Positions 9,026 through 51,310 of a stretch of DNA of 64,000 nt are shown here, in pieces. The stretch comes from Candidatus Sulfomarinibacteraceae bacterium. Lineage in GTDB: Bacteria > Acidobacteriota > Thermoanaerobaculia > Thermoanaerobaculales > Sulfomarinibacteraceae. Both the position numbers and the translations under genes were made by a program. The notes beneath the pieces are model-generated. The model worked only from the letters and a program-made list of their open reading frames with translations, searched no databases and was not told where the DNA came from. The stretch is taken from NCBI GenBank assembly GCA_963796455.1, contig CAWCLO010000010.1:160001-224000 (forward strand). The letters run 5' to 3'. Every line of letters starts with the position of its first letter. The stretch's first letter is position 1.

Positions 9026-9189
9026 GTTCGGGAGTTCTGAAAGAAAGGGTGATTCGCCCGGCCGCTCGATACTCGATGCTGGATACTCGATGCAGGATCA
9101 CTGCTGTCCAAAATAGATCGTCACCTGAAGTTTCCCACCTGACATCGCGTGGTTTACGGGTGGGTTTTTGGCATATCCGGTTCGCGGTT

Positions 9190-9524
9190 GCCCGTGTCCG
9201 TGCCCGCGTCCGCGTCCGAATTCCAGCGGCAGCGACAGTGTCCAGGGGCAGCGACAGGGATCAACGATCAGAGGCAGAGATCAGGGGCAGCGACGGCGTG
9301 ATCACCTCCGGGTCGTTCAATAGAAGGAACAGCCGTTGTCGTGTCGGCGTCTCGCCTGCACACCGTGCGGCCGAGACGGCCGCACCACCAAGGGCGGAGT
9401 CCCGAAGAAATAAGTGCTCTTCACTGTCCCGGCCGCTGATCGCTGACGCTGATGACTGAACACTGCCGCTGGCGACTGTTCGCTGCCGCTGCCCCTGAAC
9501 GCTATCCGAGACTCTGTCTTGGAC
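9190..9524 (+). mobile_element. Gene-less derivative of the four-helix-bundle element (inverted orientation)
   Basis: Reverse complement matches both ends of 50568-51310 (GTCCAAGACAGAGTCTCGGATA end, CACCTCCGGGTCGTTC box, CAGCG arms). It keeps only CCG AAG AAA TAA (9402-9413) of the gene. Confidence 0.75.
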
Positions 9525-9668
9525 AAGAGTGATGCTGGATGCTGGATCCAGACGTCGAGGTCTATTTCGAACCCGAGCCCGTTGCCGTTGCCGTTGCCGT
9601 TGCCGAAGGGGCAAGCGAAAAAGTTGAACCACCCCACTGATTTCGAACTCAAGCGAATGTCGCCTCCC

Positions 9669-9825
9669 GATGTCATCCTGAGCGGAGCGCCTTCGGCGCG
9701 AAGTCGAAGGACCCGTTCGACTCGCGCTGCTCGCTCAGGGCAGGTTCTGCGGTTTGATGTCTTTTCGTTTCATCTCATAGATCCTTCGACTACGCCCCTG
9801 TGGGGGCTTCGCTCAGGATGACATC
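9669..9825. repeat. REP/MITE-like palindromic element, copy 1
   Basis: Terminal IR GATGTCATCCTGAGCG / CGCTCAGGATGACATC, internal GTCGAAGGA/TCCTTCGAC IR; second copy at 14003-14124. Confidence 0.9.
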
Positions 9826-10165: not shown

Positions 10166-11005
10166 ATGCCCGAAGCGATCAACGGTGAGGTCACGATTCA
10201 CTATCTCGACGAGGGCACCGGCGAAACAGTGCTTCTGATCCACGGTCACACCCAGGACCGACGGATCTTTGATCCGATGATGGGATCACTCATCGGTGAG
10301 GGGCTGAGGGTCATCCGACCCGACCTCAGAGGCCACGGCAAAAGCACCCGCCCTGACTCCGGCTATCACCACTCCCATCACGCCTCCGATATGTTGGCGG
10401 TTCTCGACGCGGCCGACGTCCATCGCGCTTCGGTCCTTGGTTATTCGGTAGGCGGCGCGATTGCGCTCGAGATGGCCATCACCCATCCCGATCGGGTCGC
10501 CGGTCTCGTGCTCGCCTCAACGGTGATGCCGGATCGCCCATTCGAGCCCGAATTCATGGACTGCCTTCGGCAAGTCGCCCGGGTGGCGCGCACCGAGGGA
10601 ATCGCCGCCGCCATGGAAGGAGCCTGGGGTGAGTGTCCGCTCTTCACGCATTCCTTCACCAAAGCGGAGGTCCGCGAAGCAGCGGAGGCGATCACCCGGG
10701 ACTTTCCTGGAGCTGAGTATCTCGCGACCGCGCGGGATCACGTCGAACGTTCGTGGACGGTTCCCGATAGGCTCTCCGAAATTGACGTCCCCACCATCGT
10801 GTTGGCGGGCGACAGCGAGACACCGGGGTTCATCAAATTTGCCGAAGAAGCTGCGGCCGGCATCCCCGGTTCCCGGCTCGAACTCCTGGTCGACTGCGGT
10901 CACCTCCTGCCTCTCGAGGCACCCGACCGGCTCGCCCAGGCGATTCTCGATGCCACGCAAACCGACGATCCCAACGCGACACAACCAATTTCTCAACGGC
11001 TTTAA
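10166..11005 (+). CDS. Alpha/beta-fold hydrolase
   Basis: LLIHGH, PDLRGHGKS, nucleophile GYSVGG, CGHL; GGAGG RBS. Confidence 0.92.
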   Translation: MPEAINGEVTIHYLDEGTGETVLLIHGHTQDRRIFDPMMGSLIGEGLRVIRPDLRGHGKSTRPDSGYHHSHHASDMLAVLDAADVHRASVLGYSVGGAIALEMAITHPDRVAGLVLASTVMPDRPFEPEFMDCLRQVARVARTEGIAAAMEGAWGECPLFTHSFTKAEVREAAEAITRDFPGAEYLATARDHVERSWTVPDRLSEIDVPTIVLAGDSETPGFIKFAEEAAAGIPGSRLELLVDCGHLLPLEAPDRLAQAILDATQTDDPNATQPISQRL

Positions 11006-42173: not shown

Positions 42174-42370
42174 CAGACGCCTCTCTCACCGCTGCAGGCG
42201 GGGATGGAGTCAGCTCCGTTGACGAGCCGCATCGAGGGAGGCAAAAATGCCATCCATCTATTCTATCTGCCGGGTCAAGGAATCTCCGAATTTTGGCTCG
42301 GAGGGCCCTCTCACACCGGTTGGATTGTGATGATTGTTACAACGCGCAGCCAACACCGGTCAGCATTCCT

Positions 42371-42765
42371 GTCCAAGACAGCTTCTTGTAAAGCTTTCAG
42401 GGACAGCGTCAGCAAACAGCGGTCAGCGTCAGTTTTCAGCCATCAGCGACAGCGAACAGCACTCATTTCTTCGGGTTCAACAGCCGCCAGGTCATGGCAC
42501 GGACCTGATCGAAGGCCAGCATCGCTTCACTGGCTCGATCCCGGCTGATCGCACCGGCGTGAGCGAGAAGCTTTAAGTGGTCGCCCACCGGCTACCCCTT
42601 CTGTTGAACGACCCGGAGGTGGCCACATCATCGCCTGTACTCCTGATCGCTGCCGCTGCTCTCCGTCGCTGAACACTGACCGCTGTCCCTGTTCGCTGTT
42701 GTCTGTCGCTGACCGCCGACCCTGATCGCTGTCACTACCGCTGCAATTCGGGCACGGGCGCGGTG
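42371..42765 (-). mobile_element. Internally deleted copy of the four-helix-bundle element
   Basis: Same GTCCAAGACAG end, CAGCG arms and GAACGACCCGGAGGTGGCCA box as 50568-51310. Confidence 0.85.
42463..42579 (-). pseudogene. 3' remnant of a four-helix-bundle gene
   Basis: Translates as HLKLLAHAGAISRDRASEAMLAFDQVRAMTWRLLNPKK*, homologous to the C-terminus at 50671; no start codon. Confidence 0.9.
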
Positions 42766-42844: not shown

Positions 42845-42917
42845 GCCCGCAGATCACGCAGATTGACACAGATAAGAAGAAGGAATCCATCTGCGTCTAT
42901 CTGCGTGATCTGCGGGC
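42845..42917. repeat. Empty inverted-arm element built of 9-mer units
   Basis: Perfect 19-bp IR GCCCGCAGATCACGCAGAT / ATCTGCGTGATCTGCGGGC; related single arms at ~12856 and ~62890. Confidence 0.85.
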
Positions 42918-42991
42918 GTTTTTTTGCCGCGCCGTGAAAATGAAGTCAGCAATTCAGACCAGACCGCACCCGAATCGAATCGAAGATCCTC

Positions 42992-50310: not shown

Positions 50311-50567
50311 GAAATACCTCCGAGATATCGGCGAACCTCGTTCGCCAGCAGATCGTGCAACAGCAAGAAGCCTGCCAACGTTCCCGAAACAGCCATATTG
50401 CAGGTCTTCTGCGGAAATTCGGCGCTTTTTTTACAATTTCGCAACCTTATCCCCTGGATACGGCTGTTTGGCCGATGAGTTTCCAGCCCGGACATCAAGT
50501 ACCCCTGCCATTTTGGCGCGGTTAGGCCACCGGCACCAGGCTCCCCTCACGACGAAAAACCCATCGA

Positions 50568-51310
50568 GTCCAAGACAGAGTCTCGGATAACGTTCAGGGA
50601 CAGCGACGGCGAACAATGGCCAGCGGCAGCGAACAGCGGCCGGGGCAGCGACAGCGTCAGCGAACAGCCCTTACTTGGTCGGGTTCAAGAGCCGCCAGGT
50701 CATCGCGCGGACTTGATCGAAGACGTTCATCGTTTCACGGGCTCCGTTCGGGCTGATCGCCCCGGCGTCGGCGAGGAGCTGCAAGTGGCTGTCGACCTCT
50801 TTCGCCGAGGCGTAGGCGATCCTCCAGTGGTTCGATCGGTCTCTACCGAAGCGGCCGTGCCCTTCAGCCAGGTTCGCGGGGACTGAACTTGCCGACCGGA
50901 TCACCTGATCGGCAATAGGCTTCAGCGGAGCGGGAACCCTCATCACGAGCTTGATCGCAATCCTGCTGCCTCGAGGGCCTTCGAGTGGGCAACGAGGTTG
51001 GTGTTCGTGGCGGCGTTGGACATGGTCACCTCCGGGTCGTTCATGCCCATACCCACAAGCCGGTGAGGCGGCCGATGTCAAGGATGCCCTGCACCCTGCC
51101 TGTCCTTGACATCGGCCGCCCACCGGCTACCCCTTCCTTGGAACGACCCGGAGGTGGCCATTTCGCCGACTGGACTGCTGATCGCTGCCGCTGATCACTG
51201 AACACTGATCGCTGTTCCCGGTCGCTGCTCCCCGTCGCTGGCGCTGGACGCTGTCGCTGTCCCTGGACACAGTGGCTGCCGCTGCAATTCGGGCACGGAT
51301 GCGGACGCGG
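50568..51310 (-). mobile_element. Putative repeat-armed element carrying a four-helix-bundle gene (near-complete copy)
   Basis: Inverted CAGCG-rich arms (50597-50670 and 51175-51285) flank the gene and the leader hairpin; two derivative copies exist in the window. Confidence 0.75.
50671..51023 (-). CDS. Four-helix-bundle protein (23S rRNA-IVP / Avd-like family); 1-nt frameshift near 50962
   Basis: DQVIRSASSVPANLAEGHGR...IAYASAKEV motif. GGAGG RBS and ATG 51023 (MSNAATNTNLVAHSKALEAA) join the downstream frame if one base is added, giving about 117 aa. Confidence 0.88.

Follow-up and report, generated by a model that had tools for sequence, protein, structure and literature searches.

The stretch of DNA analysed here, hereafter the window, spans 64,000 nucleotides (G000:C10:160001-224000). 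G000 denotes its source assembly (5.02 Mb in 10 contigs, 90.5% complete), other G numbers denote further genomes, and L numbers denote loci extracted from genomes. The window contains three copies of one repeated unit, E1, E2 and E3 (Table 1). An initial annotation of the sequence had described three loci with a common end motif, a box and inverted CAGCG-type arms; all of these are present and mutually alignable, and the alignment bore out that the locus at 42371-42765 holds the 3' third of a gene and that at 9190-9524 only its last codons. The gene at 50671-51023 had been taken as full; however, it is not intact, since a two-base run has lost a nucleotide at CDS position 62 (about position 50960 of the window). 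This frameshift is possibly a long-read sequencing error: the additional base does appear in contigs of other samples, although these derive from pooled copies. On its left side E1 has also lost the inverted end, together with some 90 nt of subterminal DNA. E3 extends over 9099-9531, beyond the limits first given; both ends together with a target duplication are found in this copy alone among the three.

Table 1. Position and anatomy of the three copies in the window.
Feature	Position	Strand	Remarks
Copy E1, gene-bearing	50561..51310	-	Between a GGDEF gene and degP; from alignment and family comparison
E1 right terminal inverted end	50561..50578	-	Degenerate in its outer bases; the end motif of the initial annotation makes up the inner 11 nt
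E1 downstream hexamer arm	50597..50670	-	Complementary to the upstream arm; from sequence and fold of E1
E1 four-helix-bundle gene	50671..51023	-	1-nt deletion near 50960; intact copies have 117 codons
E1 box	51027..51042	-	Holds the ribosome-binding site of the gene; from sequence comparison of copies
E1 inner palindrome	51059..51128	.	Two arms of 25-26 nt that co-vary between species; each carries a -35-like hexamer facing outward
E1 inverted copy of box	51141..51156	+	In read-through transcripts, predicted by folding to pair with the ribosome-binding site
E1 upstream CAGCG-type arm	51178..51292	-	Ends in the third motif of the initial annotation (51279-51292)
E1 short internal hexamer array	51291..51310	.	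Break-off point of E1 (and E2)
Copy E2	42364..42764	-	Between secF and rel; right end kept, left end lost; 3' third of gene at about 42467-42586
Copy E3	9099..9531	+	Complete 433-bp gene-less MITE downstream of glmM; inverted ends 9099-9116 and 9514-9531
E3 left 9-bp target duplication	9090..9098	+	1 mismatch; inside a heptamer array
E3 right 9-bp target duplication	9532..9540	+	From flank comparison

Other repeats lie close to these copies. Beside E3, a second repeat family of paired hairpins (window 9580-9770) recurs genome-wide (for example at G000 C1:511853-512269 and C1:335712-336188); we take it to resemble REP-type elements. The alpha/beta hydrolase gene that follows glmM (window 10166-11005) is co-directional with glmM and is convergent in the relatives displayed, which suggests a local inversion next to E3 and the other repeats. 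Adjoining E2 there is a hairpin of short repeated words (window 42846-42918), whose depth in other samples is far above that of the flanking genes.

A BLASTN search with the three window copies identified 243 family loci covering 97 kb of G000; the gene is covered to 90% or more in 65 of them, partly in 42, and little or not at all in 136. The proposal of a mobile element with full-length and MITE forms thus gained many further copies. The three annotated motifs have 85, 166 and 84 exact occurrences in the 5.02 Mb, and patterns built from the ends match 255 times in G000 and 6 times in a base-shuffled genome. The end motif first described is genuine as a shared sequence, but it is internal to the true ends. 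Conservation among the 65 copies runs past both of the limits first drawn, and the unit is bounded by 18-bp imperfect inverted repeats: its right end lies 7 nt outside the annotated one, and the second inverted end about 100-110 nt beyond the other. Complete gene-bearing copies measure about 820-890 bp. The MITE forms, of 340-720 bp, come from internal deletions and one replacement, the latter replacing the gene in 22 of the 37 short complete copies. E3 is among these 22, so that the short forms anticipated as deleted derivatives do exist, but E3 belongs to an amplified gene-less subfamily and has no private deletion. Two gene-less copies of 433 bp are 98% identical and lie at different sites with different perfect duplications. 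Such amplification of gene-less copies implies that the four-helix-bundle gene is dispensable in cis.

Right ends outnumber left ends in G000 (158 versus 88). The 32 copies without a left end terminate at the internal hexamer array and show no target duplication (p 0.82). One-ended transposition was considered for them and rejected, as no duplication was found within 70 nt upstream. The excess of right ends, together with left-less copies without duplication, indicates that a second process shaped many loci. Insertions had no orientation bias relative to flanking genes (10 versus 19, p 0.14, with crude gene calls). A comparison with Rfam gave only generic hairpin matches, none near the gathering score. 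G000 also contains, at C1:2036-2760 and about 20 other loci, a multicopy element of 500-750 bp with 8-mer arms and no recognised gene.

To characterize the target duplication, 64 end pairs under 1 kb were used, and the match between flanks was scored at lengths from 2 to 15 nt against shuffled pairs. The 9-nt match was 81%, against 52% in shuffled pairs (z 16.8), and the next best lengths were 2 nt (z 4.4) and 12-13 nt (z about 3.3). Among pairs located outside heptamer arrays (n=17), the 9-nt match was 72% versus 32% (z 9.5), and no other length was prominent; insertion at a 2-bp AT core was rejected because, outside arrays, the 9-nt match holds and the 2-nt match does not. The 9-bp duplications are perfect in 21 of the 64 pairs and have a single mismatch in 17 more (38/64 with at most one), the mean number of mismatches being 1.85 at gene-bearing copies (n=27) and 1.57 at short copies (n=37). 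The target consensus is AT-N5-AT. Sites with heptamer-like flanks account for 47 of the 64 insertions, though arrays hold just 640 of the 12,306 AT-N5-AT sites, and 76 of 153 heptamer arrays touch an element end, an enrichment that is somewhat overstated because the duplication itself lengthens the array.

The idea that heptamer arrays are footprints of the element was weakened by genomes that have no end match and are rich in arrays (209 in G015, 58 in G022, 51 in G004); extinct elements may be the source of the arrays in these genomes. The two autonomous elements found in the genus, an IS4 element in G017 (L113:1388-2798) and an ISL3 element in G008 (L180), both lie inside heptamer arrays. 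Single-copy four-helix-bundle genes of other subfamilies were also seen, at G000 C4:1278094, C1:983149, C9:2726 and C10:733004 and in L163-L166. Most of them are bracketed by their own inverted arrays of 6-8-nt words, with no IS ends in the flanks viewed, and such loci may be the source of the arrays targeted by the mini-transposons.

The ends of the unit are those of a known type of insertion sequence. The exact 18-nt right end occurs in at least 101 stretches in other genomes. Nine loci carrying a transposase (an ORF of about 390 aa) were examined: five are elements of 1,417-1,583 bp that have both ends and are flanked by a perfect 9-bp duplication; in another the duplication shows two mismatches, and the remaining three have no usable one. 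The elements in L067, L085, L048, L051, L062 and L113 have an identical right end and a near-identical left end. The transposase of L067 belongs to the IS4 family (NF033592, 251 bits against a cut-off of 115, with PF14294 and PF01609) and has Y(2)R(3)E(6)K spacing; this YREK DDE transposase is found in the L067 and L113 elements and not in the cassette, where one passenger CDS and no transposase lie between the ends. By YREK spacing, end signature, size and a duplication of 8-10 bp, the autonomous elements appear to fit the IS4Sa subgroup as given in Table 1 of PMC2266710. The L113 element, from the same genus as the window, is intact and has one end identical to the left end of the cassette; its flanks are not a direct repeat. 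Given that ends and 9-bp duplications match those of autonomous IS4 elements, the cassette is best read as moved in trans, and its initial description as a hairpin-armed element without a transposase partner is not supported.

We did not find the matching IS4 transposase in G000 by profile searches of the 90.5% complete assembly (NF033590, NF033592, PF14706, PF14294, PF01610 and PF00078 yielded no mover), nor in G041-G044, four genomes holding copies with well-kept duplications. An IS4 transposase above the NF033592 cut-off is present in 2 of 25 genomes of the genus. A PF01609 element of G000 was rejected as the mover because its ends differ. That element (C7:291074-293800) has an intact transposase of 353 aa and its own ends, and is adjoined at the contig end by a frameshifted gene that presumably belongs with IS110. 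IS4-type ends also enclose other cargo: in another species (L015, L016 and similar loci) they surround a different gene-less hairpin cargo of 320-390 bp with good 9-bp duplications, and in L033 the 2.2 kb between them hold an ORF of 416 aa, which we take to be a group II intron maturase.

The passenger gene belongs to the protein family proposed for it at the outset, with HMM scores of 55.5 bits for TIGR02436 (cut-off 24) and 54.2 bits for PF05635 (cut-off 33.8); an intact copy (L332:560-910) also passes the TIGR02436 cut-off, and a family search of G000 gave 70 PF05635 matches. By sequence match alone it resembles two five-chain PDB entries, 2GSC (XCC0516; E 0.003) and 2RLD. PF05635 proteins are widespread, and we know of no function for them outside their resemblance to Avd. 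Literature searches, mostly of papers outside subscription, found none on TIGR02436 or on this gene with Avd and repeats or MITEs; among papers on 'four helix bundle protein', judged by title, none was about mobile elements.

The gene is intact in 58 of the 65 copies, with a mean dN/dS of 0.16. Variants common to at least two copies comprise 136 synonymous and 68 non-synonymous changes (omega 0.15-0.18), while private variants comprise 38 and 69 (omega 0.59, binomial p 0.01). Adenine-specific variation is absent among the gene copies, and no reverse transcriptase match (RVT_1, PF00078) was obtained in G000. The copies have a median gene identity of 0.889 and form a star-like tree, and linkage between variable sites drops with distance (r2 0.114 below 25 nt and about 0.02-0.03 above 50 nt, permutation p 0.001): the gene copies are mosaic.

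Upstream of the gene, the leader is a nested palindrome in which the ribosome-binding site pairs with the inverted copy of the box. At its inner 16 pairs, 16 related sequences compared without a shuffle control had 23 changes on both sides and 7 broken cells out of 256; conversion within the element of a DNA palindrome would look the same as this covariation. The leader may silence translation in read-through transcripts, and in the predicted fold of E1 the arms form a long stem enclosing leader and gene. Arms and gene together are an older cargo cassette, which also occurs without IS4-type ends.

In all 16 relatives with the degP-GGDEF interval, this interval is unoccupied: it has no gene, box or ends and measures 216-700 bp, compared with 1,029 in G000. 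Two further relatives' loci have no GGDEF gene. Likewise, 17 glmM loci among those listed have neither box nor ends. Many of the relatives' intervals hold other repeats, and with about 70% identity in flanking genes these genomes are too diverged for a single 9-mer to be seen at an empty site. Contigs from four low-depth read runs contained no empty allele, no excised circle and no spanning contig, the E2-E1 joints among them being cross-copy alignments.

The cassette matches 19 of 24 genomes of the same genus and, weakly, 5 of 16 of the same order. IS4-type ends number 161 in G000, 77 in G006, 68 in G021 and 24 in G008, and are absent from 14 of 25 genomes. In G014, which has no IS4-type ends, all 12 displayed cassette loci adjoin a different end, of GG type, in 8-mer arrays. 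In this genome and in G008 the cassette is found between GG-type ends with an 8-nt flank match. Across 24 GG-type end pairs (one locus counted twice) the best match is at 8 nt (z 4.2, with a high background). The GG-type end pattern is present in 11 of 25 genomes and absent from G000 and G006. 8-mer arrays accompany the ends in all 11 of these genomes, and the 9 genomes that have no such arrays lack the ends as well; the arrays could be footprints or targets of GG-type elements with an 8-nt duplication. An origin of the GG-type ends from ISL3 is plausible, the ISL3 element of G008 sharing only the outer bases with them. In the loci examined we found neither an ISL3 transposase beside GG-type ends nor an autonomous element with exactly these ends. 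Other four-helix-bundle subfamilies in G000 and G014 have word-repeat arms only.

In a midpoint-rooted tree of 91 genes, the IS4-ended genes are on one side of a branch with support 100/98. Nine genes labelled G006 (from L003 and loci placed in G041) cluster tightly with one from G044 inside the G000 diversity; they are 95.6% identical within the group and 84.5% identical to G000 copies, while degP and glmM of G000 and G006 are 70% identical at the DNA level. With this rooting, the tree suggests transfer of the element between the two species. The second species holds a young burst of 9 copies (95.6% mean identity, several perfect duplications). The G044 copy (L077), 97% identical to the G006 group, comes from a genome recorded as an alphaproteobacterium, and reflects either transfer between phyla or a binning error.

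Our preferred reading, which we hold to be very probable, is a non-autonomous mobile insertion cassette of the IS4Sa type, with MITE derivatives, moved in trans and later recombined among its copies. The history would begin with an older cassette: a hexamer arm, a palindromic leader that sequesters the ribosome-binding site, the four-helix-bundle gene and a complementary arm. This cassette would have come to lie between both ends of an insertion sequence from the IS4 family (IS4Sa type). The resulting unit of about 850 bp would be excised by an IS4 transposase acting in trans, probably by the cut-and-paste chemistry ascribed to the IS4 family in PMC2266710, and be inserted through a 9-bp staggered cut, for the most part where AT-N5-AT sites lie within heptamer arrays. 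The MITEs of 340-720 bp, still able to move, would stem from internal deletions and a single replacement; later recombination among copies would have mixed alleles, with many copies, like E1 and E2, losing the left end. In G000 the moving was presumably done by an IS4Sa-type transposase that has since been lost or was left unassembled.

How much of the present family stems from insertion, and how much from exchange among copies, is the nearest alternative to be weighed. It is possible, if doubtful, that after an old burst most of the diversity seen today, and some of the loci, arose by gene conversion or recombination among copies and arrays. The decay of linkage, the star-like tree and the modest median identity of the genes speak for it, as do the left-less copies that end at the internal hexamer array without duplication. 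However, recombination does not create new 9-bp duplications at unrelated sites, the young burst in the second species counts against this reading, and mixed strains in the assembly could mimic some of the mosaicism. A very unlikely reading takes as the main function an intervening sequence of mRNA, whose paired arms RNase III would cut from host transcripts. The protein family is that of the ORF in 23S rRNA intervening sequences, the predicted stem encloses leader and gene, and RNase III excision was shown for the Coxiella intervening sequence (PMC4990558); against it, none of the three window copies lies in rRNA, insertions are not biased in orientation to host genes, and RNA processing would not account for target duplications. 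There is equally little to recommend, and we would give marginally less credence to, a self-mobile hairpin-armed element moved by its four-helix-bundle protein, alone or together with a reverse transcriptase, the IS4-like ends being incidental. Such an element would agree with the lack of a cognate transposase in the assembly, with copies without IS4 ends in G000 and relatives, with the subfamilies that have word-repeat arms only and with selection on the gene. Its difficulties are that ends and duplication length match autonomous IS4 elements, that a change of end type shifts the flank match from 9 to 8 nt, that the genome has no RVT_1 match and no adenine-biased variation, and that gene-less copies spread; it may hold for arm-only cassettes.

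The role of the protein is a separate matter, compatible with IS4 trans-mobilisation: it is either a helper in trans or a passenger kept intact for another reason, and for pure passenger cargo a dN/dS of 0.16 would not be expected. We consider it rather unlikely that an Avd-like protein, bound to the cassette's hairpin or arms or to word-repeat arrays, makes trans-mobilisation more frequent or better targeted. Such a helper would explain repeated capture by different IS ends together with selection on the gene, and it accords with the preponderance of intact genes, the contrast between shared (136:68) and private (38:69) variants, the GG-ended cassettes of G014 and G008 with their 8-nt flank match, the co-varying leader arms and the homology of PF05635 to Avd (PMC10053308). 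On the other hand, gene-less copies spread too, as the 22 of 37 short complete copies attest, so any role would be in trans, and duplications are no better kept at gene-bearing than at short copies. The selection could also act at the level of the host, for example against faulty oligomer subunits, as the five chains of 2GSC might suggest, or be a legacy of functional alleles that gene conversion mixes in a common pool.

Compared with known systems, the IS4Sa-type cassette most resembles the mobile insertion cassette (MIC) MIC231 of Bacillus cereus, which belongs to the IS231 subgroup of IS4 (PMC6199540): in both, two inverted ends of the IS4 family enclose a single passenger CDS and no transposase, the size lies within 0.7-3 kb, a conserved stretch adjoins the left end, and trans-mobilisation is expected. 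In contrast to MIC231, it has IS4Sa-type rather than IS231 ends, a 9-bp duplication, 65 gene-bearing copies in one chromosome, a strong bias to heptamer arrays, and structured cargo with a selected gene. With IS4Sa and the DUF4372 plus DDE_Tnp_1 (NF033592) elements it shares end signature and a duplication of 8-10 bp (PMC2266710); unlike them, it has no transposase, and its subterminal and internal DNA shows no resemblance in the stretches viewed. ORF-bearing 23S rRNA intervening sequences (S23p, PF05635) have the same protein family and an enclosing long stem (PMC4990558), whereas the cassette is intergenic, multicopy and outside rRNA, with IS ends and target duplications, and its ORF is mostly intact and selected, that of Coxiella being described as decaying in the same source. 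The protein is also like XCC0516 (PDB 2GSC) and like Avd of diversity-generating retroelements (PMC10053308); the cassette differs from the latter in that no reverse transcriptase was found in the genome and no adenine-specific variation in the gene copies.

The transposition itself follows ordinary MIC biology; what needs explaining is the cargo, which is under selection and has been captured repeatedly. By targeting short repeat arrays, a mini-transposon has come to fill about 2% of one bacterial genome, and with 58 of 65 genes intact, its cargo may have a job. It is improbable, although it would be of wide consequence, that the cassette is a helper module independent of transposase family, its Avd-like protein binding leader or arrays and boosting or steering whichever transposase is present. 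If true, this would explain the independent capture by IS4 and other IS ends, the selected high copy number and the array bias, and PF05635 proteins would gain a role in DNA mobility. The 58 intact paralogues in one genome show which residues and leader base pairs stay conserved. The gene now has a defined vehicle, with IS4Sa-type ends, a 9-bp duplication and a named transposase family, so that its movement can be rebuilt and the contribution of the protein measured.
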